Positions 5,728 to 63,843 of a stretch of 64,000 bases of DNA are shown here, one piece after another. The stretch lies in the NCBI RefSeq assembly GCF_041248615.1, contig NZ_CP158426.1. One strand, given 5' to 3'. The notes beneath the pieces are model-generated. The model was given only the letters and a program-made list of their open reading frames with translations, ran no database searches and had not been told where the DNA came from. The position numbers were made by a program, and so were the translations under genes. Numbering within the stretch: the first letter of the stretch is position 1; every line of letters begins with the position of its first letter. Source of the DNA: Escherichia coli. Its GTDB lineage: Bacteria; Pseudomonadota; Gammaproteobacteria; Enterobacterales; Enterobacteriaceae.

Positions 5728-8700
5728 TTATTCAAACAGGGCTTCAATATCGTTAATGAGTTCGCTGGCGGTGATGTCGTCGAGCACGGAGAACTGCGCT
5801 TCCTGAGTTGAATTACTCCCCCAGCCATAGCTTTCCGCTTTGCCTTCCCATAGCCACAGCTTGCTTAAGACCTGCTCAGCGCTAAGATCGGCTGGTGACA
5901 TACCCACCGCAAAACCTTCGTCGATTTCCATGATTAACGACCAGCGACCGAGAGGTTTGATCATCCATCCGATCCAGCCTCCATCCTGTGGTTCGCCCTT
6001 TATCCAGCCTTTATTTGCCAGCCCCATGACCCGGCCGCTCGGGCATTTTCTGCCTGCCCAGCGGGTCAGTTCGCTGGCGTTGCGCTCGGCTTCTGTCAGG
6101 GCGTAACTGTTACGTTCAAGCTGACGGAACGGTGGTAGCAGTTCGTAGTCGGCAAAAAGCTGACCAAAGGCGACAGCATCCGTCGGTGATATTTCCAGAA
6201 CGTGAGGAATGCCGATAGAGATATCGCCTTCCTGCAAGGTGAAAAGATCATCGTCAGCGGTGCTGTAGCTGTTATCTTCCGCCACCCTAAAGCACGCCTG
6301 TAGCTGGTTTTCGGCGCTATAAACGCCCCAAATCAGACGGCGGGTTAAGTGACGAACCAGCGGATGCTCAACCAGGAAGAGCTGAAAGTTTTCCGGCGAC
6401 CAGCGGCGGCGCAGGCACATGGCGGATTCCAGCCTTGCTACCTGCTGGGCGGCGACGGTACGCGCATCTTTTTTCAGCAATTTGTAGCGGTTAACAGCAT
6501 CGTTTGCCTGTGATTCATCATCGCTTTTATTGGGTTTAGGTAAGTCTTTCAGGCGGCTGCCGGAAACATCGCGCACAAACGGTTTTAAGGTTTCATCAAA
6601 GCTGACGGTGAACTGCCGTGGGCCAAAATCCAGCAGCAGCGAACCGTTATCATCCAGACCGAGATCCGGTGCTAACCGGTCTTCAAGCTCCGGCACCGTG
6701 AGTTCGCGGCTCTCGGCAATGTCGGCAATTTTCTCTTTCGCCCGCTCCTGTAAGGCTTTGAATTTCAGTTTCTGGGCGATGCCGTTAAGCTGCATCAGGG
6801 CGATATCGCTGCCGATAGCGGCGAGAATATCCAACCCAACGGTGGCACGTTTATGCTGAGATTCGCCAGGCCAGGCGCGGATTAATGGCGTCAGTTTGCG
6901 GGCGGTGTCATCGTTACCGAGAACGCCTAACGCAGTGAACGCCCAACTTTCTTTCGACGGCGCGCCAGCGGTCTGCCAGGCGGTAAACAGATCCCAGGCA
7001 AATTCAGCCAGTGAGTCGGCGGTACAGGCATCTTTCACCTGCAATAATCCCGGATACAGCGCCTCCTCCTGATGGAAGCGGAGCATTTCACCGAGGTGGA
7101 GGAGGGCGCTATCTGGCAGTGATTGGGCATTTGCTTTTAATACCGGGCGGGTCCAGATCGATGGCTGATAAAAGGCCGGAAGAGTGGGGATTTTTGTCGG
7201 GTGATTATCTAAGGGATCGAGCGCAAGCATAGCGTTCACCGCATCTGTTACTTCCGGCTGGTTATAACGCCGGGCGATTTCTTGCAGTAATGGCTGATGA
7301 TCGTTTTCGATAAGCATACGCAAGGCAGCGCGGGCGTTATCCTGGGCTTCACCGGCTTTGCCGAGCGCCGCAGGCAGTAGGCCGGTAATGGCGTGTTCCG
7401 GGTATTTCAGCAGCCAGGTGCGGGCGTCTTGTCGTAGGGTTTTGAGTTTGTTGAAGGCGCGGGCGATCAGTGGCGCTAATTCGATAGCCGCAAAATATTG
7501 TGCTACAGGCAGAGCTTCTTGTGGATAGCGTGAAAAGGAGTGAATAAAACCCTGTAACCCAGCGAGTTGCAGGTGCGTCATGACAAACTCGACACCGACG
7601 TGTGGCTCTTTACTGAGGACATTCCACGCCTGCGCTGTTTTTTCGATAGGCAGGGCGGCTAACATGTAAAGCTGCCATTCCCGTTGATAGGAGTGCCAGA
7701 AGGTTTTAAATTCGCTGATTAGCGCAGAATAATCTCCCCTCTGCCAGAGTTCTACAACAGCATCAGACGCTTTCATATACTGGCCATTATTCCAGCGATT
7801 GAAACCCAGACGTGTCAGGTAGTTCTGAATATCCTCTTTTTGGCCGATGTCTATTTGATGTGCGTGCCAGCGATGCCTTGCATGAATCTCTTTTTCTGCC
7901 GTCTCGGTCAATGTGCAGCATGACTCCAGCGGTAATGGCGTTAAATCCAATACCGGCATTACAGATTTTTTCTTTTTCGAAAGCCAGGGCGGTGAGACTA
8001 ATACGGCAGGCAGCATATCGGCGCTGGCATGGTTTGAGGGCTGTGTCAGTTGTTGCTGGCATGATTTCAGCACTGCAACTGCGGGTGTTGAGAGCCAGGG
8101 AGTGACCTGTTCTGCTAGTGCCGGTTGCGAGATAAGCATCGTCATCAGCATAATGCGCCAACTATTCTCTTCTTTTTGCGCAAGAAGTTCCGCCAGTGCA
8201 GCCAGTGCTGCGTGTGGGAACGCAGCGCAAGCCTTAGTCATTCGTTCATGGCAGCGTTTAGTTTTGCCAGACACACGTATAAGTAGCATTAATGCTTGTG
8301 GGTGATTGATCTCTTCGAGAATACTTCCACAAAGATCAGCATAAGCATAGGGGGCGAAGCGAGCGATTCCGGCAATCCCTTGCTCCTGCAAAACGGTGAC
8401 ATTCCAGATGCAACCATGGTAATAGTCATTAAAAAGGTCGTACGCGCAATAAGATTCCAGCGCTTTGAGTAAGAAAGATTCTTGAACAACAAGTTTCAGC
8501 CATTCAACAGTTTGGACATTTTTCTGCTTCAGTAACCGTCGTGCGACTTCTTCTGCAATCTCCGGGCGTTCCGGTAGCATTAGCGCTACCATCGGTTGTT
8601 GAACGGGAGGAATATCAGGTAAAGCTGTAATGAATTTATCTACACAGCGTTGCCACAAAGTTTCTTCTGCAAGAGCCAAATGCTTACGCAGTCGAACGTC

Positions 8701-9477
8701 AAAGGGGGTAACACAATGTGCATGGTTTAATAATGGCTGAAAAGTAATGTGTATGCTTGTTCTGTGATAAGTGCAATCGAACGAGATATATTGCATGGCA
8801 ATAAACATATCCACGGCAAATTCTAGTCCGTAGACATAGACAATTTCATCCATGAGTTCAGGGCATTCGCCCCAGAATTTACGTGAAACCAGAACAACCT
8901 GTACAGCCAACGCAGCAGGAGAAAGTGGACCATTAGCGAGAGCTTCATTGATATTCTGCTGCCAGTTAGCAGAACATGCACTGAAATCGTATGTTGTTAT
9001 TTTTCCTGATAGATTATGAATATCCTGACCTAAATTCATAAGGAGGCTGTCTTGTGGTTCGCTTACAGCATCCCCAGGAAAACGTCGGGAAGGTAAGGCC
9101 TCCTGAGACTTTTTCTCCGATAGATGGATAGGGGAATCATCTGTCAGCCACGGGCATGGTGTCTCAGCAGGTTCAACAACCATACTTTGGTCAAATACGA
9201 CTGTGGTTTCTGCCACGCCAGTTGTATCTACTTCGATCGTTTCTATTTTGATTGCGGGTTGGGATGGCGAAGATAATTCTTCCACATACCCCTTCTTCAC
9301 CTTCTCCGCAATCAGCTTCAGTTCCGCTTTTTCCGCCGCCGCAGCATCTGCAAAGCTTTTTACCTGACTTTGCCCGTTAGTGCCGACTTTACCCCAGTTA
9401 ATATGCAGCTCGTTTCCCTGCTGCTCCACCGCCCAGAATTTATGTGATTTTTCGTCCTGATAGATAAAGTGTTTCAT
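5728..9477 (-). CDS. molR: MolR/YehH, intact 1249-aa ORF with N-terminal WGR-like segment
   Basis: Uninterrupted ORF beginning MKHFIYQDEKSHKFWAVEQQGNELHINWGKVG; paralogous to yehI. In K-12 this locus is recalled as a fragmented pseudogene. Confidence 0.8.
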   Translation of the reverse strand: MKHFIYQDEKSHKFWAVEQQGNELHINWGKVGTNGQSQVKSFADAAAAEKAELKLIAEKVKKGYVEELSSPSQPAIKIETIEVDTTGVAETTVVFDQSMVVEPAETPCPWLTDDSPIHLSEKKSQEALPSRRFPGDAVSEPQDSLLMNLGQDIHNLSGKITTYDFSACSANWQQNINEALANGPLSPAALAVQVVLVSRKFWGECPELMDEIVYVYGLEFAVDMFIAMQYISFDCTYHRTSIHITFQPLLNHAHCVTPFDVRLRKHLALAEETLWQRCVDKFITALPDIPPVQQPMVALMLPERPEIAEEVARRLLKQKNVQTVEWLKLVVQESFLLKALESYCAYDLFNDYYHGCIWNVTVLQEQGIAGIARFAPYAYADLCGSILEEINHPQALMLLIRVSGKTKRCHERMTKACAAFPHAALAALAELLAQKEENSWRIMLMTMLISQPALAEQVTPWLSTPAVAVLKSCQQQLTQPSNHASADMLPAVLVSPPWLSKKKKSVMPVLDLTPLPLESCCTLTETAEKEIHARHRWHAHQIDIGQKEDIQNYLTRLGFNRWNNGQYMKASDAVVELWQRGDYSALISEFKTFWHSYQREWQLYMLAALPIEKTAQAWNVLSKEPHVGVEFVMTHLQLAGLQGFIHSFSRYPQEALPVAQYFAAIELAPLIARAFNKLKTLRQDARTWLLKYPEHAITGLLPAALGKAGEAQDNARAALRMLIENDHQPLLQEIARRYNQPEVTDAVNAMLALDPLDNHPTKIPTLPAFYQPSIWTRPVLKANAQSLPDSALLHLGEMLRFHQEEALYPGLLQVKDACTADSLAEFAWDLFTAWQTAGAPSKESWAFTALGVLGNDDTARKLTPLIRAWPGESQHKRATVGLDILAAIGSDIALMQLNGIAQKLKFKALQERAKEKIADIAESRELTVPELEDRLAPDLGLDDNGSLLLDFGPRQFTVSFDETLKPFVRDVSGSRLKDLPKPNKSDDESQANDAVNRYKLLKKDARTVAAQQVARLESAMCLRRRWSPENFQLFLVEHPLVRHLTRRLIWGVYSAENQLQACFRVAEDNSYSTADDDLFTLQEGDISIGIPHVLEISPTDAVAFGQLFADYELLPPFRQLERNSYALTEAERNASELTRWAGRKCPSGRVMGLANKGWIKGEPQDGGWIGWMIKPLGRWSLIMEIDEGFAVGMSPADLSAEQVLSKLWLWEGKAESYGWGSNSTQEAQFSVLDDITASELINDIEALFE

Positions 9478-20157: not shown

Positions 20158-20430
20158 ATGTCTCATACCATCCGTGATAAACAGAAACTGAAAGCGCGTG
20201 CCAGTAAGATTCAGGGCCAGGTCGTGGCGCTCAAGAAAATGCTCGACGAGCCGCACGAATGCGCTGCAGTTTTACAACAGATTGCTGCTATCCGTGGCGC
20301 GGTAAACGGTCTGATGCGGGAAGTGATTAAAGGTCATCTGACGGAACACATCGTTCACCAGGGGGATGAGCTAAAACGTGAAGAAGATCTGGATGTCGTT
20401 CTGAAGGTGCTGGATTCTTATATCAAATAA
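20158..20430 (+). CDS. rcnR: Ni/Co-responsive repressor RcnR (CsoR/RcnR family)
   Basis: 90-aa [71 protein letters not shown]. Confidence 0.95.
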
Positions 20431-20519
20431 TTTATTAACGCTATTGTAAAACTGCCGTTTTTCCTCGTTTACAACGCGTGCGCTGGACATTACCATCCTC
20501 CTCTGCGATTTATCATCGC

Positions 20520-20599
20520 AACCAAACGACTCGGGGTGCCCTTCTGCGTGAAGGCTGAGAAATACCCGTATCACCTGATCTGGATAATGCCAGCGTAGG
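20520..20599 (+). repeat. Left 80-bp direct repeat (attL-like); copy of the thiM TPP-riboswitch aptamer sequence
   Basis: aaccaaacgactcggggtgcccttctgcgtgaaggctgagaaatacccgtatcacctgatctggataatgccagcgtagg is identical base for base to 33185-33264. Confidence 0.9.
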
Positions 20600-20654
20600 T
20601 TGCCAACATTCTGATTAGTATTCATGTGGTTACATTTCTTTTTGTCCGTGTGTA

Positions 20655-21986
20655 ATGCACCTAATGTACAAAAAGAGCGTAAACATGAGGTACAAAACTC
20701 TTCCATACACGTTTCAAAGAAACGGTAATTACTATCTACAGATTCGGCTTTCGAATGGTCGGATGTATAAAAAATCACTTCTCACTGACAGCTATCGTGA
20801 AGTCTCTGCTTTGATGATTGGTGTTGCTCCGTACATTCCTTTTGTTAAATCATTAGCCATCACAATCCCGATGTTTGATGCCTTTGTTTCAAACCTGATT
20901 ATGTCAAAACTTAGGGCTGTAAAAGTTCCGCTGCTATCACATCAGTCGGTAATTACCCCTGCTACATTCGAGGAACCAGCGACACAAGCCGAACCGCAAA
21001 ACATGCTAACTCTTTCTGATGCGTGGGCTATGTATAAAGCGGAAAAGGGTAAAACATGGACAAAGTCGATCTCAAGGGCGAATGAGCGTTACATGGAAGT
21101 CTTGATGGTTGTCTTGGGAGAGACAACTGACGTAGTTGCGATTTCTAAGCAGGACATCAAGCAGGTGATGGAAGTTGTTGAGAATTTGCCTAAGCGTGTT
21201 GTCCAACCGTATCGCTCAATGAACATCCAGCAACTGATTGAATGTGATGATGTATCACCGAATGAGTTAGTAGGAGTGGAAGCCATTCATAAGCATCTCA
21301 AAATCTACAAATCGCTTTTCAAGACTTTTCTAACAGAAAACAAAGATATTTTGATTAAATCCCCAACTGATGGGGTAGTAGCAGCACCATCTAAAGCAAG
21401 GTTTGGAGCATACAGTTCGGCGGAGATGAAGAAGTTTGTAGAGTGGGCACTTAAGCAGCCAGATGGCTGGCAGAAGTGGATAACATTGTTGTTGGCATAC
21501 ACAGGAGCCAGAAGGGGAGAAATTGCCAAACTGGAAAAATCACAAATAAAATATGATGAGGATAGCCATCGGTATTATTTCCTGATTGCAGAAGGAGGGC
21601 AGGGGAAAACCGAAAATGCTACCCGACAAGTAGTGATACACCCTAAGTTGATCGAATGGGGTTTCATGGAATACGTTGATCGCCAGTGGAAAGAACGGAT
21701 TTTTTCAGAAGTGGCTGGTACAAACATGACGAAGATCGGTAAAGAATTTGCTGATGTGCGTGACCAGCTTGACATTCCGTACTTAGACGATTTTGGACAG
21801 CGGAGGCTTTTGCATAGCATTCGTCATTCTGTTTGCTCTACTGCGATGGCTGGATGGGTAAAGAACATCTTGCATCTGCAACAAACAGTAGGCCATGAGA
21901 AAAGTGGAGGGATCACTAAACGCTACTTACATACGTTCCCACTATCATCAATTTGTTATGTTATTGATGGGATTAGTTGGGTCTGA
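20655..21986 (+). CDS. Tyrosine-type site-specific integrase (island integrase); start may be at MRYKTLPY (20685)
   Basis: C-terminal catalytic signature: AYTGARRGE (box I Arg), HSIRHSV (H-x-x-R), ITKRYLH (Tyr nucleophile). Sits directly next to the left repeat. Confidence 0.85.
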   Translation: MHLMYKKSVNMRYKTLPYTFQRNGNYYLQIRLSNGRMYKKSLLTDSYREVSALMIGVAPYIPFVKSLAITIPMFDAFVSNLIMSKLRAVKVPLLSHQSVITPATFEEPATQAEPQNMLTLSDAWAMYKAEKGKTWTKSISRANERYMEVLMVVLGETTDVVAISKQDIKQVMEVVENLPKRVVQPYRSMNIQQLIECDDVSPNELVGVEAIHKHLKIYKSLFKTFLTENKDILIKSPTDGVVAAPSKARFGAYSSAEMKKFVEWALKQPDGWQKWITLLLAYTGARRGEIAKLEKSQIKYDEDSHRYYFLIAEGGQGKTENATRQVVIHPKLIEWGFMEYVDRQWKERIFSEVAGTNMTKIGKEFADVRDQLDIPYLDDFGQRRLLHSIRHSVCSTAMAGWVKNILHLQQTVGHEKSGGITKRYLHTFPLSSICYVIDGISWV

Positions 21987-22203
21987 AACTGCTAAGAATG
22001 ATAGGAAAAGCTACTTAATGATCCTTAGTTTTGGATGAAATTGAAGATTACAAAGATCTTGAGCGAATAAGAGCGTTTTTTAATCAAAAAAGCCATAAAA
22101 ACTTTTCTTGACTGTATATTAACACAGTGCTTCTACTATGTAGAAGAAATCGACATGAAAAATTTGATATGGTAAATTTTATCCATGATAACAAAAAGGT
22201 ATT

Positions 22204-23106
22204 GTGGATATGTTACTACCAATACGAGTTCATAAACGATTTCTAACTTTATTTAAGACTTTGCAAATTGACGATTGCCCACCGCAATCAACTTTAAATA
22301 TTCATGTACTTAATATCGAAAGCAATGAATTTATATACTGTAAATTAGTTGAAGAATTACGTGACATAATAATTACTTATGTACATTCGAATAGAAGGCT
22401 TGAGGAGTTTAAGGAAAGTTATCCTTCGTATAGCCCTAAACCTTTTTTCGAAGCAATACAAAAATTTCGCAATTATACGTCAAACGAAGGTGAGTTAGGT
22501 GAACTGCTTTTATACGCTTTTCTTGAAACAGGACTAAATGCTCCGAAATTACTTTCCAAAATGCAATTGAAAACAGATTCTAATGATTACATTAAGGGTT
22601 CTGATGGTGTACATCTGTTAGAATTAGATGATGGTTATCAATTAATATTTGGAGAATCAAAGCTCTATGCCGATCTTTTAGAAGGTGCTCGAGAAGCGTT
22701 TGATTCTATTTTAGATTTTAAAAGTAATGGAATGGCATTTGAAAGAGGGCTGATAGATACACACGTTATAAATGAAATGGTTTCAGAAGAAGGTTATGAG
22801 AAAATAAAATCAATTCTTCTTCCTTCTTCTGGCGATGATGGGCCAGATCTTGATTTATCCTTTGGTATATTTCTTGGTTTTGAATTGAAAATAGATAGCT
22901 CACAGTTATCATTGAAAAACAAAGAGTTTAGAGATTGGGTTAATGAGTCCGTGAAACAACATGCTACTCGCGTGGTCAGTACGATACGAAGGAAAATTAT
23001 TAATCATAAATTATATGGTCACGAATTCCACATATATATAGTTCCTTTTACCGATATTGATGTTACACGAAAAAAATTAATTCATGAAATGCTAACAATT
23101 AAGTGA
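22204..23106 (+). CDS. PD-(D/E)xK nuclease-like protein, HamA (DUF1837)-like candidate; start GTG 22204 or ATG 22210
   Basis: Motifs in the order expected for the restriction-endonuclease fold: acidic helix EGELGELLLYAFLE, then SDGVHLLELDDG, then LIFGESKLY (E-x-K). AT-rich; stop overlaps the start of the next gene. Confidence 0.55.
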   Translation: MDMLLPIRVHKRFLTLFKTLQIDDCPPQSTLNIHVLNIESNEFIYCKLVEELRDIIITYVHSNRRLEEFKESYPSYSPKPFFEAIQKFRNYTSNEGELGELLLYAFLETGLNAPKLLSKMQLKTDSNDYIKGSDGVHLLELDDGYQLIFGESKLYADLLEGAREAFDSILDFKSNGMAFERGLIDTHVINEMVSEEGYEKIKSILLPSSGDDGPDLDLSFGIFLGFELKIDSSQLSLKNKEFRDWVNESVKQHATRVVSTIRRKIINHKLYGHEFHIYIVPFTDIDVTRKKLIHEMLTIK

Positions 23107-25691
23107 ACACTATGAATGAATTAAATTCAAGTAAAAACATTCATTTGGCAGCTCGTCTTGCAGATGATGCTTTTGAAAGTGCTTATTTTAAAGAAATCAA
23201 TAAGTTTATAAGTGGTTTATACAATTACAGTTTATTTAACTGCGATTCAGATGTTAGTCTCTCCGAGAGTGATAACAATAAAATAGCACACGCTTTGCGT
23301 TTTGCAGATATATTTTCACATTCTTCAAAAGAAAATCATAGATCATGTGCATTTGAAATTATAAGTAGAATAGCCTTATTAAAAAAACATGATCCTTATT
23401 TTAAATTTATAGGTACTGCTGTTATTAATCGGCTTGGGGTTTATGCAGCAGAAAAACTCATATCAAAAGGGGTAAAATTACCCTTAGATAGAGAAGTTGA
23501 TTCTATTATTAAAAAATCAGTTCAGAAAACAGATGAAGATGGAGTATATTTCACTGATAAACAACATGAGTTATACAAACTTTTAAAAAGTAGCAAAACA
23601 ATTAGTTTTGCTGGTCCCACTTCGATGGGAAAGTCATTTGTTATTAATGCATACATTAAGGAAATAACTCTTAAAAAAGAGCTTAAAAATATAGCTTTAA
23701 TTGTTCCTACACGGGCTTTAATAAGCCAAAATGCACTTAAGTTAAAAATTGATATTGCATTGTATAAGAATGAAAGCCCTTATAAAGTTGTTACGACATC
23801 CTACATTATTAATGGTGATGAAAGTAAAAATAAAGGCTATATTTTTATTCTCACCCCAGAAAGGCTGGTTAGTCTCATAAGCACTATTCCTGGACTAATG
23901 ATTGATTATGTTTTTGTAGATGAAGCTCAAAAGTTAACAACAAAAAATGATTCGAGGAGTCTTGTTACTTATTCAGCTATAGAGCAAACAATTAGTAAAA
24001 ATCCTGAGGCAAGATTATTCTTCTCTTCACCTAATTTATCTAATCCTGAAATATTTAATATTTTGTTTGATAGAAAAGACGCTTCGGTATATAGAAATAC
24101 AGAAGGTGCAACTACTCAGAATATGTATTTTATTGATCTTTTAAATAGCAGCTTTAGCTATGTTAATACCGAGAAAAGGACGCTTGAAAAAATAGATGAG
24201 ATCTCTAATACTTACACGAATACAAATGATGTTATCTATAAATTAAATAATGGTAAAAGTAAAATAATTTATTGTGGGGGGATAGAAAGCACGCTTGAGA
24301 GAACACGTAGCTTTATCAATTATCTCAAAATTAATAAGAAAAAAAGAAAGCATTTAAATTTAGAAATATCTTCTGAGATAAGAAACTTTGTTCATGATAA
24401 CTATGAACTTGCAGAAGCCATCAACTATGGTGTTGCTTTCCACTTTGGAAACTTGCCTCAATCGATTCGAGATTTAATTGAGCATCATTTCAAAATAGGA
24501 AATATTGACTATCTATTCTGTACATCAACCCTACTTGAGGGAGTCAATTTACCTGCAAGATCCGTATTTATTCTTACGCATAAAAAAGGCCCCAGTCCAT
24601 TAGAGTCGGTTGATTTTTGGAATCTGGCTGGGAGAGCTGGGCGATTATCTATGGAATTGTCAGGGGATATTTTTTGTATTAGGGATGATAATAAGCTTTG
24701 GAATAAAAAAGCTGTTGATAATATCCTTCTGTCTGACAAAAATAACATTTCATTAAAGCCAAGCTTCTATATTGAAGACGAAAAAAGATTGAACGATTTA
24801 CACCATATAATTACGACTGGTAAAACAGGGAATATTAAAAATGCTGAGTTCCTTAGAACTTTAGGAGATATGATAAGAATAGACACTCTGAGGGATTCTA
24901 AAGAACTTCCTCTTATTAGTTATTTCCAAAGCAGTGGAAAATCAGAAATTTTGTTAAGTGCAGAAAAAAGCACTGAAAATATTACCATGCCAATGAATAT
25001 CCTTTTGGCAAATAGTCATATTGCGATTGATTCGCAGTATCATGCTTTTAAAAAAATAAAAAGCCTTACAGTTAAGGAACTGAAATTATCATGGCAGCCT
25101 ACATACGAAGAAATTAAAGAAAAATTGAATTTGATATTCGATATTTACCAAGTTGAAAAGTTTGCAACAGGTAGAGAACGTCTTTATTTAAATTCAATTC
25201 CATATTATGCAGTATTACTGTTTCAATGGATTCGTGGAAATAGTCTACAGGAAATTATCTCGGGGGCAATTGCTTATAGAAAGAACAAAAGTATATATAT
25301 TAAAAATACACCTGTTCTTTTTGACAGCGAAAACCCAGCTCATTTAACTGCATTAGTTAATGAAACTATAAAAGACATTGAGTTGCGTGTAGGTTACCAG
25401 TTACAAAATTATTTTTCACATTACTGTCAGCTTCTGAATTATGTGTTACAAGGAAATCCAGGGGCAAACTGGTCTCAGTTCATTGAGTTTGGCTCTAATG
25501 AGCCAATAGTATGGCACCTACAAATGATGGGCTTTTCAAGGGATAGTGCAGTTTTTCTCAAGAAGAATTTTTCAAAACATCTTAAACTTGATAATGAAAT
25601 GAATAAACTCATCATAATGGATAAGGAACTGATCAAGCGTTCTTTCAAAAAAGATGGACTACATTACTTAGAAATCCAATCGTTATTATAA
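23103..25691 (+). CDS. Superfamily-2 helicase (DEAQ box), HamB-like candidate
   Basis: Walker A/motif I FAGPTSMGKSFV, motif II VFVDEAQKL, motif VI-like NLAGRAGRL; about 170-aa N-terminal extension before the helicase core; GTGA start/stop overlap with the upstream gene. Confidence 0.6.
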   Translation: MNTMNELNSSKNIHLAARLADDAFESAYFKEINKFISGLYNYSLFNCDSDVSLSESDNNKIAHALRFADIFSHSSKENHRSCAFEIISRIALLKKHDPYFKFIGTAVINRLGVYAAEKLISKGVKLPLDREVDSIIKKSVQKTDEDGVYFTDKQHELYKLLKSSKTISFAGPTSMGKSFVINAYIKEITLKKELKNIALIVPTRALISQNALKLKIDIALYKNESPYKVVTTSYIINGDESKNKGYIFILTPERLVSLISTIPGLMIDYVFVDEAQKLTTKNDSRSLVTYSAIEQTISKNPEARLFFSSPNLSNPEIFNILFDRKDASVYRNTEGATTQNMYFIDLLNSSFSYVNTEKRTLEKIDEISNTYTNTNDVIYKLNNGKSKIIYCGGIESTLERTRSFINYLKINKKKRKHLNLEISSEIRNFVHDNYELAEAINYGVAFHFGNLPQSIRDLIEHHFKIGNIDYLFCTSTLLEGVNLPARSVFILTHKKGPSPLESVDFWNLAGRAGRLSMELSGDIFCIRDDNKLWNKKAVDNILLSDKNNISLKPSFYIEDEKRLNDLHHIITTGKTGNIKNAEFLRTLGDMIRIDTLRDSKELPLISYFQSSGKSEILLSAEKSTENITMPMNILLANSHIAIDSQYHAFKKIKSLTVKELKLSWQPTYEEIKEKLNLIFDIYQVEKFATGRERLYLNSIPYYAVLLFQWIRGNSLQEIISGAIAYRKNKSIYIKNTPVLFDSENPAHLTALVNETIKDIELRVGYQLQNYFSHYCQLLNYVLQGNPGANWSQFIEFGSNEPIVWHLQMMGFSRDSAVFLKKNFSKHLKLDNEMNKLIIMDKELIKRSFKKDGLHYLEIQSLL

Positions 25692-25697
25692 AACTGC

Positions 25698-25728
25698 CGA
25701 ATCAGAGTCTTTTATTGATTCTGATTCG
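25698..25728 (+). terminator. Hairpin immediately after the helicase gene (weak terminator candidate)
   Basis: CGAATCAGA-(13 nt)-TCTGATTCG; no strong T-tract, so confidence is low. Confidence 0.3.
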
Positions 25729-25999
25729 CACTTATATAGTTAAATCAAAAGGAGCATTAAAATTTTTCAGTAGCGATTTAGTATGCTAAATCGCTGCATA
25801 ACGAATCTGCTTCTAAATCTTGATTAAGTGTTTCGAACTGCCTTGATTGTTTATTGCTACACTTTATAATTAATCGCAACACACAAAACAATACAATGTA
25901 GGCAGTTGCACAGAATTAATTACAGGCACATTATGGATATCGAGAGGATTCGAACAGTTTTAAACTGCAAGCCCTTTGACTTTATCCCCTCCTACTATA

Positions 26000-26575
26000 T
26001 CAGCGTTTGATGCCGCTAATACTGGCAAGCATTTCTTTCTTCACACGAAAAACTGTAGCCCTGCCGCAATCACATAACTTTGCTATCTCGTCTGGTGTAT
26101 TCTTCCCGGCCTGTAACATATCGATAATCTTGTTATGTAGCTCTTTGTTCTTTTGCTTGCCCTTGTACTTCTTAGCCTCTTTAGCAAGAGCAATCCCCTC
26201 ATTGCGACGAGATGCGATCATACCCCGCTCAAATTCTGCAGCGGCTCCCATCATGGTTAGGATAAGGCGTGATTGTGGGGAATTATCAAAACTCATAGAG
26301 TTTGCAAGGAATTGAACAGTGATTCCACGAGCCACGAGGTTATCAATCATTTCCAGCAAATCGCGGGTATTACGTGCAAGGCGATCAATCGAGTGAGTAA
26401 CGAGCGTGTCACCTTCGCGGAGGTGTGAAAGCAGGTTCAACAATTCAGGTCTTTCGCTGGTGGACTTACCTGATTCTTTCTCTGCCACAATTTTGTCACA
26501 AACAGGTTCCAGCACTGCCAACTGACGCTCAAGATTTTGATCCTTTGTTGAGACTCTCGCGTAACCAAAAATCAT
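26000..26575 (-). CDS. Serine recombinase (resolvase/invertase family)
   Basis: N-terminus MIFGYARVSTKDQNLERQ (catalytic Ser in YARVST context), C-terminal HTH-like tail; 191 aa. Confidence 0.85.
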   Translation of the reverse strand: MIFGYARVSTKDQNLERQLAVLEPVCDKIVAEKESGKSTSERPELLNLLSHLREGDTLVTHSIDRLARNTRDLLEMIDNLVARGITVQFLANSMSFDNSPQSRLILTMMGAAAEFERGMIASRRNEGIALAKEAKKYKGKQKNKELHNKIIDMLQAGKNTPDEIAKLCDCGRATVFRVKKEMLASISGIKR

Positions 26576-29552: not shown

Positions 29553-31028
29553 TCATTTTTTGCTTTTTTGTACTTCCTTTTCGTATTTGTTCCACATAGC
29601 CTTTTGCTCTTCGGGACTGAGTGCTGTATTACCACTGGCAAGAAACACCTTGAACGCTTCTAACTCAAGCCCTGGGTTGCGGCTTTTCCAGCGGCGAAAA
29701 CGCTTAGCGTGATTATCATCAAGAGTGAAACGCTTTTGCTTATTCTTTGAACCTTGCGGCCTGCCTCTCGACCTCTGCTCATCATCAATACCGATATCTA
29801 TATACTCAATATTATCTGTAAGAGATCTGGCTTGCCATTCATCAAAAACATAAACAGTCTGTGTTTCAGTACTGTCAAAATCCCTTGAAATTCCTCGTAG
29901 TACGAACTGGTGTAAACTTTCGTACTCCCTCGCAACATGTATCGCCTCGCCGTCAATCTCAAAGAACAATTCGCACTGTTTAGCCTCTGTTTCAGAGGGA
30001 CGCATACAAGCGAGCCAGACGCACGTGAGCAAGTGTTGGTACTGGTTAAACCCTCTGGCATCCGGGCTTATCTCTGTGCCGTTTTTGAGGCTCTGAGAAT
30101 CGCTTTTGTTCTTCGTCCAGTAGAAATCCTGTCCCTCAAGTTTTTTATCAATAAATGAGTATATTTTTTGTACTTTATCAGGGTTATTAGTCTTCCATGT
30201 CTTCGATAGTTTTTGATTTTTTGAGAAGTAATAAACCTTTAATCTGTCTTTGAGAGCTGTTTTTCGTGTCAGTAATCCTCCAAGTTCAGTACTTTCAAAG
30301 AGTTCTTTATTGCCTTTATAGATCAATGAATTTTCGAAATTAGCTCCGAGAAAGGTGATTGATACGTCTTTGTACTTACTGAGATCTTTCCATGCGGTAA
30401 TATTAAGCTGTTCCTTTTTCGCATCGGTAAAGTACTCATTATTCATGATGAACATATCATTTTCGTTAATTGCTGGTAGCTGGTTCAAAATATTCTTCAG
30501 TACTTCCCCTTGTATTTCTGGTTTTCTTTCTGCCGCAATATACATATTTTTATCATCTAATGTCAGTACATTGTGTATTAATGAATTAAGAATTGTATTT
30601 TTTATATTAGTATCACCCTCATTAATATTCTGAAAAGAGTGAAAATTAGTAACGTCGTCAATATAAATATTACAGTCAGATAACAATTCAGGAGGAATTT
30701 TGAAAAACGTTTTATCTGTTATGAGTAATGTTTTATTACTTCCAGATGAAAGAAAGTTAATAACTGAATTAATAACACTTTCATCTTTTGGTACTGTATC
30801 TGTAATTATATACTCGCAATTATTGATTTGCTTTGCTGTCTGCTTAATAAGTTCTTGAGTGTTCTGTACTAAAATATATTTTTCAGTACTGTTATTGATT
30901 ATATTGCATATAGCAGTAGTTTTACCTGAACCACAAGGGGCGGAGACATACTTAAATTTATTATAAATAGGTGTGGGATTAATCATTTGTACACGCTCCA
31001 TATTGATTAATGTAGAAAGGTCAGCCAT
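29553..31028 (-). CDS. P-loop NTPase with basic C-terminal tail containing an AT-hook-like RGRP motif; function unknown
   Basis: N-terminal Walker A SAPCGSGKTT, Walker B-like NIYIDDV; C-terminus RSRGRPQGSKNKQKRF. Confidence 0.6.
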   Translation of the reverse strand: MADLSTLINMERVQMINPTPIYNKFKYVSAPCGSGKTTAICNIINNSTEKYILVQNTQELIKQTAKQINNCEYIITDTVPKDESVINSVINFLSSGSNKTLLITDKTFFKIPPELLSDCNIYIDDVTNFHSFQNINEGDTNIKNTILNSLIHNVLTLDDKNMYIAAERKPEIQGEVLKNILNQLPAINENDMFIMNNEYFTDAKKEQLNITAWKDLSKYKDVSITFLGANFENSLIYKGNKELFESTELGGLLTRKTALKDRLKVYYFSKNQKLSKTWKTNNPDKVQKIYSFIDKKLEGQDFYWTKNKSDSQSLKNGTEISPDARGFNQYQHLLTCVWLACMRPSETEAKQCELFFEIDGEAIHVAREYESLHQFVLRGISRDFDSTETQTVYVFDEWQARSLTDNIEYIDIGIDDEQRSRGRPQGSKNKQKRFTLDDNHAKRFRRWKSRNPGLELEAFKVFLASGNTALSPEEQKAMWNKYEKEVQKSKK

Positions 31029-31370
31029 TCCAGTGTCTGGCCTTTCGTTGTTTTAGTTATTAGTCTTTTTGAGTTGCGACAACTGCAAGAGAATGTTTAT
31101 AAACAAGTGAAATAAGCAGTTTTACCGCCTCAAAAGCTACAGTCAGTTTCGTAATTATTTTCGAAAGCATCGTAAATTTCACTTCGCTATCTTCTATGCA
31201 AAAATTAGCAGCCTGAGGTATTTAATGATTGAGATGTGGCCTGTTGATAAGAGGGTTTGTATTGCTTGTTCTGCTCTTTGTTAATTTGTGACTTATTCCT
31301 TTCACAATGATCGGCTATGTTTGATAACTCTGTTAGGAAATCACCTATGGCTACCATATTGGATTTGCCC

Positions 31371-32276
31371 CTATATTTCCAGACACCTGTTATCACTTAA
31401 CCCATTACTGGCCTGCTGCCGCAGATATTCCCGTGGCGAGCGATAACCCAGTGCACTATGCGGATGCCATTCGTTATAATGCTCGAACGCCTCTGCAAGG
31501 TTCTTTGCTGCCGTTAACCCGTCTGGTTTAGGCATGATACTGATGTAGTCACGCTTTATCGTTTTCACGAAGCTCTCTGCTATGCCGTTACTCTCCGGAC
31601 TCCGCACCGCCGTGTTCTTCGGTTCAAGCCCCAATATCCGGGCAAACTGCCGTGTTTCATTAGCCCGGTAGCATGAACCATTATCCGTCAGCCACTCTAC
31701 TGGAGACGCCGGAAGCTCGTTGCCGAAGCGGCGTTCCACCGCTCCCAGCATGACGTCCTGTACTGTTTCACTGTCGAAGCCGCCCGTAGTGACTGCCCAG
31801 TGCAGTGCCTCACGGTCACAGCAGTCCAGCGCGAACGTGACTCGCAGTTTTTCTCCGTTATCACAGCGGAACTCGAACCCGTCAGAGCACCATCGTTGAT
31901 TGCTTTCTTTCACGGCCACTTTGCCAGTATGTGCCCGTTTCGATGGCGGTACAGCGGTTTTTCGCTCAAGCAACAGCGCATTCTGGCGCATGATCCGGTA
32001 AACACGTTTGGCATTGATCGCAGGCGTACCATCAAGTTCGGCCTGTCTGCGAAGCAGCGCCCATACCCGACGATAACCATACGTGGGCAGCTCTCCGATA
32101 ACATGGTGTATACGGAGAAGCACATCCGTATCATCTGAGTGACGGCTGCGGCGACCATCTTTCCAGTCATCGGTTCGTCTGAGAATTACGTGCAACTGCG
32201 CACGCGACACCCGGAGACAACGGCTGACTAAGCTTACTCCCCATCCCCGGGCAATAAGGGCGCGTGCGCTATCCAC
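31371..32276 (-). CDS. insD: IS2 transposase OrfB (InsD), DDE domain
   Basis: 301-aa ORF recognised as IS2 InsD; overlaps insC in the -1 frame as expected for an orfAB frameshift fusion. Confidence 0.9.
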
Positions 32277-32599
32277 TTTTTTGCACGCCCGTATTCAACG
32301 GCTTCTTTAAGGAGTTCATTTTCCATCGTTTTTTTGCCGAGCAGGCGCTGGAGTTCTTTAATCTGCTTCATGGCAGCAGCAAGTTCAGAGGCAGGAACGA
32401 CCTGCTCTCCTGCGGCCACAGCAGTAAGACTTCCCTCCTGGTATTGCTTGCGCCAGAGAAATAACTGGCTGGCTGCCACACCGTGTTGCCGGGCAACAAG
32501 GGAGACCTTCATTCCCGGTTCAAAACTCTGCTGAACAATAGCGATCTTTTCCTGTGTAGTACGCCGTCTGCGTTTCTCCGGTCCTAAGACATCAATCAT
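32234..32599 (-). CDS. insC: IS2 OrfA (InsC), HTH protein
   Basis: [56 protein letters not shown]...; start taken at MIDVL (ORF track begins 45 nt upstream). Confidence 0.9.
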
Positions 32600-33184
32600 C
32601 TGCTCTCCAATGACTAGTCTAAAAACTAGTATTAAGACTATCACTTATTTAAGTGATATTGGTTGTCTGGAGATTCATGGGGCCAGTCTACATATAATCA
32701 TGTTCATCTTCTAATTCTTTAAATTTTAATAGAGAAATCTCTTCATAATATTCTTTCATTTTCATATAAATCACCTTTTATTTTTTTGTTGTTAACACAG
32801 GTTTTTTTCTGCACTACACATTATAGCACATAGAATTAATTCGTTTCATTTTCTGTCAATGAAATAGAGTAAAGATAAATGCTTTTATAAAGCACTTATC
32901 ACATCCGTTGCCTTGCTATATATAAAAAGTTCTCCAAACTATACTGGTGTATATTTTCCCCATCAGATACAGTTGTTTTTAAACATTACAATGTTGGATT
33001 CTTGGTTCCAAATAAATCGAGCAACTATTAGTGTTTCAAAATGAAGTTGGGAGCTATTCCTTAATTCGTATGAGGTACAAAATGGGGTACTCGGTGGGGT
33101 ACAGCGTGTATAAGTGACGTCACCACGGGTAAACTTGCATCGGCGAGCAACTTAACCTAAGCTGACAAAAATTAAGAGAAATGT

Positions 33185-33317
33185 AACCAAACGACTCGGG
33201 GTGCCCTTCTGCGTGAAGGCTGAGAAATACCCGTATCACCTGATCTGGATAATGCCAGCGTAGGGAAGTCACGGACCACCAGGTCATTGCTTCTTCACGT
33301 TATGGCAGGAGCAAACT
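33185..33317 (+). promoter_or_regulatory. thiM TPP riboswitch (thi-box aptamer plus expression platform); its first 80 bp are also the right direct repeat (attR-like) of the island
   Basis: Sequence ...cgactcggggtgcccttctgcgtgaaggctgagaaatacccgtatcacctgatctggataatgccagcgtagggaagtcacggaccaccaggtcattgcttcttcacgttatggcaggagcaaactATG matches the recalled E. coli thiM riboswitch. Confidence 0.9.
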
Positions 33318-34106
33318 ATGCAAGTCGACCTGCTGAGTTCCGCGCAATCTGCGCACGCGTTACACCTTTTTCACCAACATTCCCCTCTTGTGCACTGCAT
33401 GACCAACGATGTGGTGCAAACCTTTACTGCCAATACCTTGCTGGCGCTCGGTGCATCGCCAGCGATGGTTATCGAAACCGAAGAGGCCAGTCAGTTTGCG
33501 GCTATCGCCAGTGCGTTGCTGATTAACGTTGGCACGCTGACGCAGCCACGCGCACAGGCGATGCGTGCCGCCGTTGAACAGGCAAAACGCTCTCAAACAC
33601 CCTGGATGCTTGATCCAGTAGCGGTGGGTGCACTCGATTATCGCCGCCGTTTTTGTCTGGAACTTCTGTCTCATAAGCCAACCGCCATACGTGGTAATGC
33701 TTCGGAAATCATGGCATTAGCTGGCGTTGCTAATGGTGGACGGGGAGTGGATACCACTGACGCCGCAGCTAACGCGATACCCGCTGCACAAACACTGGCA
33801 CGGGAAACTGGCGCAATCGTCGTGGTCACTGGCGAGATGGATTATGTTACCGATGGACATCGTATCATTGGTATTCACGGTGGCGATCCGTTAATGACCA
33901 AAGTGGTAGGAACTGGCTGTGCATTATCGGCGGTTGTCGCTGCCTGTTGTGCGTTACCAGGCGATACGCTGGAAAATGTCGCATCTGCCTGTCACTGGAT
34001 GAAACAAGCCGGAGAACGCGCAGTCGCCAGTAGCGAGGGGCCAGGCAGTTTTGTTCCACATTTCCTTGATGCGCTCTGGCAATTGACGCCGGAGGTGCAG
34101 GCATGA
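33318..34106 (+). CDS. thiM: Hydroxyethylthiazole kinase
   Basis: 262-aa [36 protein letters not shown]...; 4-bp overlap with thiD. Confidence 0.95.
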
Positions 34107-34903
34107 AACGAATTAACGCTCTGACGATTGCCGGTACTGATCCGAGTGGTGGTGCGGGGATTCAGGCCGATCTTAAAACCTTCTCGGCACTTGGCGCTTA
34201 TGGTTGCTCAGTGATTACTGCACTGGTGGCGCAAAATACCCGTGGCGTACAGTCGGTGTATCGCATTGAGCCTGATTTTGTCGCCGCCCAGCTCGATTCG
34301 GTGTTCAGCGATGTGCGAATCGATACCACTAAAATCGGTATGTTGGCGGAAACCGATATTGTTGAAGCGGTGGCAGAACGGTTGCAACGTTATCAGATCC
34401 AAAACGTGGTACTCGACACCGTTATGCTGGCAAAAAGCGGCGACCCGCTGCTTTCACCTTCGGCGGTTGCTACGCTGCGCAGTCGATTATTGCCACAGGT
34501 TTCATTAATAACGCCAAACTTGCCCGAAGCTGCTGCCTTGCTCGACGCGCCACACGCGCGCACCGAACAGGAAATGCTGGAACAAGGGCGATCGCTGTTG
34601 GCGATGGGCTGTGGCGCAGTGCTAATGAAAGGTGGTCATCTGGATGATGAGCAAAGCCCGGACTGGCTGTTTACTCGCGAGGGAGAACAACGGTTTACCG
34701 CACCGCGCATTATGACCAAAAACACCCACGGCACTGGTTGTACGCTCTCTGCGGCGTTGGCTGCACTACGCCCGCGCCATACAAACTGGGCTGACACCGT
34801 ACAGGAGGCAAAAAGCTGGCTTTCATCGGCGTTAGCCCAGGCCGACACGCTGGAAGTTGGTCACGGTATTGGTCCGGTTCACCACTTCCACGCCTGGTGG
34901 TGA
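34103..34903 (+). CDS. thiD: Hydroxymethylpyrimidine/phosphomethylpyrimidine kinase
   Basis: 266-aa [37 protein letters not shown]... Confidence 0.95.
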
Positions 34904-49453: not shown

Positions 49454-49540
49454 AAAAAATAAGCCCGTGTAAGGGAGATTACACAGGCTAAGGAGGTGGT
49501 TCCTGGTACAGCTAGCATTTTATGGGTTATGTTTTTCAGC
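49454..49540 (-). ncRNA. cyaR: CyaR (RyeE) Hfq-dependent small RNA
   Basis: Minus-strand sequence GCTGAAAAACATAACCCATAAAATGCTAGCTGTACCAGGAACCACCTCCTTAGCCTGTGTAATCTCCCTTACACGGGCTTATTTTTT matches the recalled CyaR sequence, ending in a terminator hairpin and U-tract. Confidence 0.9.
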
Positions 49541-49624
49541 GAAACGGATGATAACCTTAATAAATGCAGCTGTATGTGATCGGTTTCTAAGAATTTTCCA
49601 TCCGGGAAAAATAATCGAAATTAA

Positions 49625-62856: not shown

Positions 62857-62999
62857 GAAACGGGAAAGCCCCTCCCGAGGAAGGGGCCTTAAATAAGGAA
62901 AGGGTCATGATGAAGCTACTCATCATCGTGGTGCTCTTAGTGATTAGCTACCCAGCATACTAAGACTACCAGGGCGGGGGAAACCCCGCTCTACCCTCA
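62857..62999 (-). ncRNA. sibB: Sib antisense sRNA, copy 1 (ends approximate)
   Basis: Minus-strand promoter TTGACA (63029-63034)-17 nt-TACTTT (63006-63011); terminator hairpin GCCCCTTCCTCGGGAGGGGC plus UUUCCCGUUU near 62860-62888; fully overlaps the ibs ORF. Confidence 0.65.
62907..62963 (+). CDS. ibsB: Ibs type I toxin peptide, copy 1 (MMKLLIIVVLLVISYPAY)
   Basis: 18-codon hydrophobic ORF with AGGAAAGGG SD; matches the Ibs peptide family. A/B assignment is approximate. Confidence 0.75.
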   Translation: MMKLLIIVVLLVISYPAY

Positions 63000-63184
63000 C
63001 TCCTGAAAGTATGCCTTCACGATAAGATTGTCAATCTGCAGGCTTTGCAGTCTGCGATCCTGCCAGCAAATATTCTTTGCGAGACGTTACGCAATAATCA
63101 CACTGGAAACTATTTTATCCGCAAGTCAGCGATAGACTGCATACAGGGCGAAAGGAGGTAAGCCGACGATTTCAGCGGGACGCT

Positions 63185-63327
63185 GAAACGGGAAAGCCCC
63201 TCCCGAGGAAGGGGCCTTAAATAAGGAAAGGGTCATGATGAAGATACTCATCATCGTGGTGCTCTTAGTGATTAGCTACCCAGCATACTAAGACTACCAG
63301 GGCGGGGGAAACCCCGCTCTACCCTCA
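63185..63327 (-). ncRNA. Sib antisense sRNA, copy 2 (ends approximate)
   Basis: Same promoter (TTGACA at 63357-63362) and terminator architecture, offset 328 bp from copy 1. Confidence 0.6.
63235..63291 (+). CDS. Ibs type I toxin peptide, copy 2 (MMKILIIVVLLVISYPAY)
   Basis: Identical to copy 1 except L4I; same SD context. Confidence 0.75.
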   Translation: MMKILIIVVLLVISYPAY

Positions 63328-63513
63328 CTCCTGAAAGTATGCCTTCACGATAAGATTGTCAATCCGCAGGCTTTGCAGTCTGCGATCCTGCCAGCAAATA
63401 TTCTTTGCGAGTCGTTACGCAATAATCACAGAGGAAACTATTTTGGTCACGCGTTAGCGATAGACTGCATTCAGGGCGAAAGGAGGTAAGCCGACGATTT
63501 CAGCGGGACGCTG

Positions 63514-63662
63514 AAACGGGAAACCCTCTCCCGGAGAAGAGGGCTTTTAATAAGGAAAGGGTTATGATGAAGCACGTCATCATACTGGAGATACTCTTAG
63601 TGATTAGCTTCCAGGCTTACTAAGAACACCAGGGGGAGGGAGAAACCTCTCCCTAACCCTCA
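63514..63662 (-). ncRNA. sibA: Sib antisense sRNA, copy 3 (ends approximate)
   Basis: Promoter TTGACA (63692-63697)-17 nt-TAATTT (63669-63674) on the minus strand; hairpin CCCTCTCCCGGAGAAGAGGG at 63524-63543. Confidence 0.6.
63564..63623 (+). CDS. ibsA: Ibs type I toxin peptide, copy 3 (MMKHVIILEILLVISFQAY)
   Basis: 19-codon ORF of IbsA type; contains a Glu codon (GAG) inside the hydrophobic stretch. Confidence 0.7.
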   Translation: MMKHVIILEILLVISFQAY

Positions 63663-63843
63663 CTCCTGAAATTATGTCACTCCGCCCTTAGTGTCAATCG
63701 ACGGCTCTCCGTTCTTGCGAGGCGAATAGCAAAATTTTCTGCGCCGCCGGGCCTAATTCTGAAAGTTTCTTCGTTTGCTCTTATTTCATTATTGCAATCG
63801 GTATGATACCGGGCCTCAATAATTCTCTAAGAAAGGATTTCTT

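Follow-up and report, generated by a model that had tools for sequence, protein, structure and literature searches.

SXT/R391 integrative and conjugative elements are reported (Hochhut and Waldor, 1999) to insert into the 5′ end of prfC and to supply the gene with a new promoter and a new 5′ end. Islands and phages that enter tRNA or transfer-messenger RNA (tmRNA) genes reportedly restore the gene with a copy that they carry (Williams, 2002). Here we analyzed a 64,000 nt stretch of the Escherichia coli chromosome (the window, in whose positions all coordinates are given unless another locus is named), in which an island lies between rcnR and the thiamine genes thiM and thiD (thiMD). The island is a site-specific tyrosine-integrase element whose attachment site in the chromosome is the aptamer of the thiM thiamine pyrophosphate (TPP) riboswitch. 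Its right arm carries a candidate sigma-70 promoter at 33135-33163 which, judging from related islands, is now the promoter serving thiMD, with a probability that we put at about 0.8.

The closest mechanistic analogue is SXT/R391, the likeness concerning mechanism only and not kinship of the integrases: a tyrosine recombinase acts on a 5′-end target, the displaced 5′ segment is replaced, and a new promoter would keep the target expressed. In contrast to SXT/R391, the thiM island displaces a non-coding riboswitch aptamer and a promoter rather than 5′ coding sequence, and the thiM islands, which lack conjugation genes, measure about 9-13 kb and carry defence cargo. With the tRNA and tmRNA elements the thiM island shares a conserved structured-RNA target, a direct repeat that corresponds to the restored part, and a site that is reused by diverse elements and in tandem arrays (L005; comparison loci are numbered in this way). 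However, those elements restore the 3′ part of an RNA gene and keep its promoter, whereas the thiM island would replace the 5′ part together with the promoter and so create a chimeric cis-regulatory RNA. Because entry is on the 5′ side of the target, the element must carry a promoter. Target restoration by inserting elements is known; the thiM island departs from the known cases in having a cis-regulatory RNA as its target, giving a chimeric riboswitch under a foreign promoter. A phage attachment site in ffs, the 4.5S RNA gene, is likewise a structured RNA other than tRNA that serves as an integrase target (PMC12540744), but ffs is a stand-alone RNA gene and the thiM target is a cis-acting mRNA leader. 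Riboswitch aptamers would thus join tRNA, tmRNA and ffs as conserved RNA targets of integrases.

The site itself has been noted before. In E. coli B, a genome island beside thiM carries the type IV restriction enzyme EcoBLMcrX (PMC5487053), and an 'rcnR-thiM' defence locus is listed in the supplement of Hochhauser et al., 2023 (PMC10121019). These share with the window island the chromosomal site and defence cargo, and the right arm of BL21 belongs to the same family; the B copy is an int-less remnant with type IV restriction, whereas the window island carries Hachiman. The searched text and supplements of the two papers describe neither the riboswitch as an attachment site nor the integrase nor promoter replacement. 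A literature search of incomplete coverage gave no account of the thiM TPP riboswitch as an attachment site or of promoter replacement there, which is absence of evidence only, and thiM is not mentioned in Mageeney 2020.

The features on which the argument turns are as follows.

20158-20430, plus strand: rcnR, the final host gene ahead of the insertion (open reading frame (ORF) list; RefSeq annotation at L001 and K-12, L006).
20468-20496, plus strand: native thiM promoter, TTTACA-17-TACCAT (promoter scan; the equivalent of the native start is 20503).
20520-20599, plus strand: left direct repeat (attL), a TPP aptamer copy without the 3′ strand of helix P1 (80/80 bases identical to 33185-33264).
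33135-33163, plus strand: candidate island-borne replacement promoter, -35 TTGCAT at 33135-33140, 17-bp spacer, -10 TAAGCT at 33158-33163 (best site in its region, conserved arms, EDL933 start).
33185-33264, plus strand: right direct repeat (attR), an aptamer copy (80-bp repeat; strand exchange probably in the final ~11 nt, GCCAGCGTAGG).
33187-33283, plus strand: complete TPP riboswitch aptamer of thiM (RF00059, 71.2 bits).
33318-34903, plus strand: thiM (33318-34106, 262 aa) and thiD (34103-34903), both intact, with overlapping stop and start codons (ORF list; RefSeq annotation of L001).

The two copies of the perfect 80-bp direct repeat enclose 12,665 bp with no counterpart in K-12, where rcnR adjoins thiM and only the thiM promoter and the TPP riboswitch lie between them. 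Both repeat copies match the single-copy empty site of K-12 and of 4728 of the 5426 complete E. coli genomes, in which native promoter, riboswitch and thiM are contiguous; about 696 genomes (13%) lack this arrangement. From 33185 to beyond the thiM start the window is 100% identical to K-12, and the sequence to the left of 33185 is island DNA. Rfam recognized two plus-strand TPP aptamers in the window, at 20522-20617 (58 bits) and 33187-33283. In the attL copy, P1 is broken with three non-standard pairs, the 80-bp repeat ending right before GAAGUC, and in the attR copy, a TPP riboswitch, P1 to P5 are all intact. In K-12, thiM transcription is published to begin 150 nt ahead of the ATG, which is 7 nt past TACCAT; the searched text of the Bastet 2017 thiM paper does not state the K-12 start position. 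The integrase translation contains ARRGE, GKT, HSIRH, GHE and RYLH, the catalytic residues of a tyrosine recombinase. An earlier sequence-only reading of this DNA had held that thiMD is cut off from its ancestral promoter, that the riboswitch and the thiM start are intact at the right junction, and that the DNA upstream of the right repeat belongs to the island. All three points were borne out: as the island sits between them, thiMD is separated by 12.67 kb from the native promoter, which lies to the left of the left repeat.

Which side of the repeat contributes the aptamer to thiM can be read from relatives. Variant arms depart from the native sequence just 5′ of GACTCGG, and the aptamer body is common to them. 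In E. coli L004, Enterobacter L009 and Citrobacter L026, the P3 hairpin of the thiM-side aptamer, beside the island arm, is foreign and its stem changes compensate one another (CCCCATCnnTGATGGG), while the int-side attL copy keeps the host P3, CCCTTC...GAAGG; thus the island-borne aptamer ends up at attR, before thiM, as a 5′-end restoration of the SXT kind. The chimeric aptamer of L004 scores 73.6 bits against RF00059. A P5-loop difference in L015 and single-base differences specific to attR in L005 and L016 narrow the exchange to the last ~11 nt. In the window, the attR aptamer is probably likewise island-derived up to roughly its last 11 nt. A crossover at the 5′ end of the repeat was also considered and rejected, since the foreign P3 and the P5 variants are located at attR.

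These comparisons suggest how the locus would be assembled. Strand exchange would take place in the last ~11 nt of the 80-bp block common to island and host, and after integration all DNA 5′ of the exchange point before thiM would be supplied by the island, namely the sigma-70 promoter at 33135-33163, a leader of ~20 nt and almost all of the aptamer. Host DNA would still provide the 3′ strand of P1, the expression platform and thiMD. The island promoter would then drive thiMD through a leader of about 148-149 nt, where the native arrangement has 150 nt, and TPP control would be kept through the chimeric riboswitch. Three GGTAC repeats in the right arm and two beside int would serve as the arm-type Int sites of attP.

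The hexamers TTGCAT and TAAGCT and their 17-bp spacer are present exactly as the sequence-only reading gave them. In our own rough weight-matrix scan of the 437 nt that separate the HTH_73 gene from the aptamer (32764-33200), no other plus-strand site scored as well as this one, which reached 8.6 bits against 10.5 for the native promoter. The site retains the six best-conserved sigma-70 positions (TTG, TA...T), and its spacer is optimal within the range of 16-18 bp. We then compared it with the arms of the same subfamily (alignment A2: 16 arms from about ten genera, including E. coli, Enterobacter, Citrobacter, Atlantibacter, Lelliottia, Erwinia, Pantoea, Mangrovibacter and Silvania). All 16 have CTTG in the -35 and TA and CT in the -10 without exception, the spacer is 17 bp in 15, and the distance from the -10 to GACTCGG, the first bases common to all aptamer copies, is 28-29 nt. 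Of the arm columns, 17 are invariant, and seven of these are among the 12 columns of the hexamers (Fisher p=8e-5). By consensus alone the candidate is modest; with the related arms compared it is strong, and this strength comes from the comparison rather than from its own score. The presumed native thiM promoters of Franconibacter, Pantoea ananatis, Trabulsiella and Atlantibacter read TTGC(A/T)T-17-TAnnCT at a similar distance from the aptamer, and these short motifs hint weakly that a captured thiM promoter may be the ancestor of the island promoter.

Most arms have a palindrome, GCTTGC-N4-GCAAGC, that overlaps both the -35 and the spacer (A2 columns about 75-92, window 33133-33150). The window copy is degenerate and reads CTTGCATCGGCGAGCA. 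The palindrome could be an operator or a site for a recombination protein.

Transcription starts are available for a related arm. In EDL933 (O157:H7), an island remnant between rcnR and thiM holds HTH_73, hypothetical and outer-membrane protein genes and has no integrase. Its arm (...GAGCTTGCATCTGCAAGCCTCTTCCCCTAAGCTGGCACAAAATATAG...) has the same hexamers and the same 17-bp spacer length as the window. The sequence after rcnR has been replaced up to the stop codon, which is TGA instead of TAA (L008 14437-14560), and bears no relation to that of K-12; the native thiM promoter has thus been lost. Because no left aptamer copy remains, the remnant is no longer excisable by site-specific recombination. 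Cappable-seq places thiM starts at 137, 148 and 201 nt upstream of the ATG in EDL933 and at 150 nt in MG1655 (PMC10469882, Table S5 sheet 3). We positioned the EDL933 starts from these published distances after checking the distance convention on dnaK in the same source. By these distances, all three starts fall in island-derived DNA, and the start at 148 nt is an A located 6 nt past TAAGCT, so that a primary 5′ end 5-9 nt after an identical -10 is present in the homologous arm. If the EDL933 geometry is carried over, the thiM start in the window is predicted at ~33169-33170. The proposal of the sequence-only reading that a replacement promoter lies in the right arm is therefore supported by the most conserved feature of the 16 arms and by the EDL933 start.

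E. coli B and BL21 offer a second case. Here rcnR, the native promoter and the island's left part have been lost in an IS1-associated deletion, and the BL21 right arm (TTGCAA-17-TAATCT), ~75% identical to that of the window, directly abuts thiM. E. coli B is a thiamine prototroph, and thiD is required for de novo thiamine synthesis and not for salvage alone; thus the B arm must hold a functional promoter. According to the S1 file of PMC5487053, spontaneous mutants that had lost the restriction activity of the B island always needed vitamin B1, which its authors attributed to probable IS1-mediated deletions reaching thiM. For BL21, we found no usable genome-wide transcription-start data in the literature.

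The same arrangement recurs across the Enterobacterales. A related right arm was recognizable in 104 E. coli genomes, including all B/BL21 strains, and the O55:H7 and O157:H7 lineage shares the final ~52 nt of the arm. The junction is identical to that of the window in 13 genomes, PapRG-06-3 among them. When one genome per species was scanned with the integrase, 25 relatives came up in at least 15 Enterobacterales genera. In 23 of the 25, a TPP aptamer copy ends about 90 nt before int, and wherever the fetched flank extends far enough, it shows a second aptamer downstream on the same strand, with thiM-thiD behind it; the same integrase family is thus found at the same target in unrelated hosts. 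A second subfamily (B), with an integrase ~65% identical to that of the window's subfamily (A), is represented by the right arms of L013, L019, L021, L028 and L030, in which the arm repeats recur about every 11 bp and read GGGACACA or GTCACACA. Instead of the TTGCAT promoter, these arms carry a native-type thiM promoter and leader, TTTACA-17-TACTAT, and share with the host roughly 95 further nt that comprise the whole thiM promoter and leader. Both subfamilies would therefore deliver a promoter to thiM.

Several observations weigh against an island promoter for thiMD in the window. The candidate fits just 6 of the 12 sigma-70 consensus positions, a scan requiring 9 of 12 did not report it, and 5.6% of random 83-nt segments of the window score as high. 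The entire block of ~55 nt around the hexamers is conserved, including the palindrome over the -35, and part of this conservation could therefore reflect sites for recombination or regulatory proteins. The EDL933 arm differs from the window arm in the spacer and in the upstream sequence, and its three thiM starts, as published, imply that more than one initiation site may contribute. The two repeat copies of the window are identical, so the island origin of its own attR aptamer rests on the relatives.

The alternative that survives best, which we nevertheless regard as unlikely, is that the outward promoter serves chiefly the island itself as a circle-specific int promoter, and that thiM expression is a by-product. 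Joining of the island ends would align the promoter, the aptamer copy, the P′ arm and int in one orientation. There is also a precedent in Pcirc of ICEclc, an outward promoter at the end of the element that is reported to drive int upon circularization (Sentchilo et al., 2003). Like Pcirc, the candidate is located at the end far from int, points outward and would face int in the circle; its shown output in EDL933, in contrast, is the host gene thiM. Moreover, a conserved promoter-like site of its own, TTACAT-17-TAATGC, precedes the start codon of int on the near side of the core, the outward promoter is still conserved and active in int-less remnants such as EDL933, and the native-type thiM promoter and leader of the subfamily B arms fit restoration of the target. 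One promoter could fill both roles.

Far less probable is that the block at 33130-33185 consists of binding sites for integrase, excisionase, IHF or an HTH_73 operator and is no promoter, thiMD being transcribed by read-through from the island or from an insertion sequence (IS) at 31360-32687, which we take to be IS2 from its end sequence. Conservation of the entire block and the palindrome over the -35 would suit such sites, and the arms of attachment sites are usually crowded with them. Nevertheless, the invariant columns cluster in the hexamers, and by the published distances primary 5′ ends map within the homologous EDL933 block. As every island gene within 7 kb of thiM, the IS2 transposase included, is on the minus strand, read-through into thiM is unlikely. 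IS2 is also missing from otherwise identical islands such as L001, and read-through from either source was rejected on these grounds. Hardly credible is the idea that thiMD is effectively silent in island carriers, which would live on imported thiamine or on a thiD promoter inside thiM: thiM is a dispensable salvage enzyme, but both genes are intact, the ~13% of complete E. coli genomes without the native arrangement retain an annotated thiM, EDL933 has the thiM starts listed above, and E. coli B is prototrophic, with B1 auxotrophy arising from deletions that probably reach thiM.

If the island promoter serves thiMD, as we prefer, the claim of the sequence-only reading that the island has rewired a thiamine salvage operon needs two amendments. 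A foreign promoter and foreign parts are indeed in place; however, the island would supply the aptamer as well, with TPP control and leader length kept, and the outcome is thus better described as restoration of the target than as new regulatory logic. Likewise, thiM serves salvage, but thiD also serves de novo synthesis.

Two further regions may be bound by the integrase.

33071-33102, plus strand: three TGRGGTAC direct repeats with a 12-bp period, candidate P-arm arm-type integrase sites (motif search; kept in BL21-type, TB06052 and other arms).
20630-20693, plus strand: putative P′ arm, with the promoter-like TTACAT-17-TAATGC (20630-20658) and two arm-type motifs (kept in the attL arms of L001, L004 and L005).

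The run of three GGTAC motifs upstream of the candidate promoter, proposed earlier as integrase arm-type sites, is present as gaggtacaaaatggggtactcggtggggtacagcg at 33072-33106, with TGRGGTAC starting at 33071, 33083 and 33095. On both strands of the 64-kb window, TGRGGTAC occurs 10 times against 4.6 expected. TGRGGTAC(A) is present in three copies in the P arm and in two copies 24 bp apart in the P′ arm, all in one orientation. The first P′ motif (~20664-20669) is degenerate in the window (ATGTAC), and the second, TGAGGTAC at 20686-20693, overlaps the int start codon. The layout is the same in the four variants, the window, L001, L004 and L005, while their flanks differ. From sequence, the repeats would be putative arm-type Int-binding sites of attP, laid out as in a lambda-like attP.

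The overlap of the second P′ motif with the int start codon reads ATGAGGTACAAAA, and these 13 bases also open the P arm (33070-33082). If the motifs are bound by Int, int could be autorepressed. In the attL of L004 (7320-7334), and likewise in L005, L009, L013, L015, L016 and L026, a 15-bp palindrome lies right 3′ of the crossover region. It reads GGCCGAAATTCGGCC or GGCCAAAACTTGGCC, both halves changing together, and the window int allele has GTTGCCAAC at this position; the palindrome may act as a core-type site for Int or may form an RNA hairpin within the int leader. As long as the island is integrated, int is faced by the native thiM promoter and the P1-less aptamer copy, and no terminator-like site was found between this promoter and int (20468-20700). 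Since an aptamer copy lies upstream of int both when integrated, behind the native promoter, and in the excised circle, behind the island promoter, it is conceivable, though improbable, that TPP status modulates int expression and hence excision and integration, which would make the island a riboswitch-controlled mobile element.

The arrangement bears on between-strain comparisons of thiM regulation, a textbook riboswitch. In B/BL21 and O157:H7, which are among the most widely used E. coli lineages, and in ~13% of complete E. coli genomes, thiM is no longer beside its native promoter; in the cases examined thiMD lies behind horizontally acquired DNA, and some strains also have a foreign riboswitch aptamer. 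The integrase family recognizes a site found throughout the Enterobacterales and moves defence cargo (Hachiman, TIR-NACHT, type IV restriction, AIPR). It is therefore relevant to the mobility of defence islands and possibly useful as an integration tool.

Besides the attachment sites, the island of the window contains the following genes and two unknown ones.

20685-21986, plus strand: int, a tyrosine integrase of 433 aa (Pfam Phage_integrase, PF00589; phrog_1; catalytic motifs R, K, HxxR, H, Y).
22204-25691, plus strand: Hachiman, hamA (22204-23106) and hamB (23103-25691) (PADLOC, HamA E=2e-120, HamB E=8e-296).
26000-26575, minus strand: backbone gene resembling a serine recombinase or DNA invertase (phrog_125, E=5e-58; NCBIfam matches).
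29553-31028, minus strand: 491-aa P-loop, helicase-like backbone protein (phrog_2467, E=1e-38; the L001 homologue is a DEAD/DEAH box helicase family protein in RefSeq).
31360-32687, minus strand: the presumed IS2, interrupting the small HTH_73 gene at the island's right end (alignment gap against the IS-free island L001; IS3-family orfA/orfB ORFs).

A phage origin of the integrase was considered and rejected: tblastn against the phage collection gave a single weak partial match, and the protein is thus not a known phage integrase. The Hachiman assignment agrees with the adjacency of HamA (DUF1837) and HamB (helicase), whose ORFs overlap. On both sides of the cargo, the backbone around window 21981-25769 is 92-98% identical to L001 (PapRG-06-3) 6304-9205, while the cargo differs. 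Across near-identical backbones the cargo is Hachiman in the window, TIR and NACHT in PapRG-06-3, and AIPR and HNH proteins in 2018-01-1CC; it appears to be exchanged as a cassette in the interval from int to the serine recombinase gene.

Diverse elements also accumulate at the site. In E. coli TB06052 (L005 8700-20260), an O157-type remnant, an aptamer copy, a complete integrase island with an AAA ATPase gene pair as cargo, the riboswitch and thiM follow one another in a tandem array. In L011 and L028, a second int is preceded by a fragment of int or by a subfamily A arm.

The HTH_73 gene occupies the right end of every intact island of the family, and the intact homologue of the gene split by IS2 matches Pfam HTH_73. 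The remaining 5′ part of the split gene is located at ~32688-32765 on the minus strand. If the HTH_73 protein regulates the neighboring divergent region, including the thiM-facing promoter, its disruption by IS2 could alter regulation in the window strain.

Unrelated to the island, Rfam matched three tandem Sib antitoxin RNAs (62892-63697), CyaR (49457-49542) and the antitoxin RNA OrzO-P (1258-1331) in the window; at the site corresponding to the Sib array, K-12 presumably has two copies.

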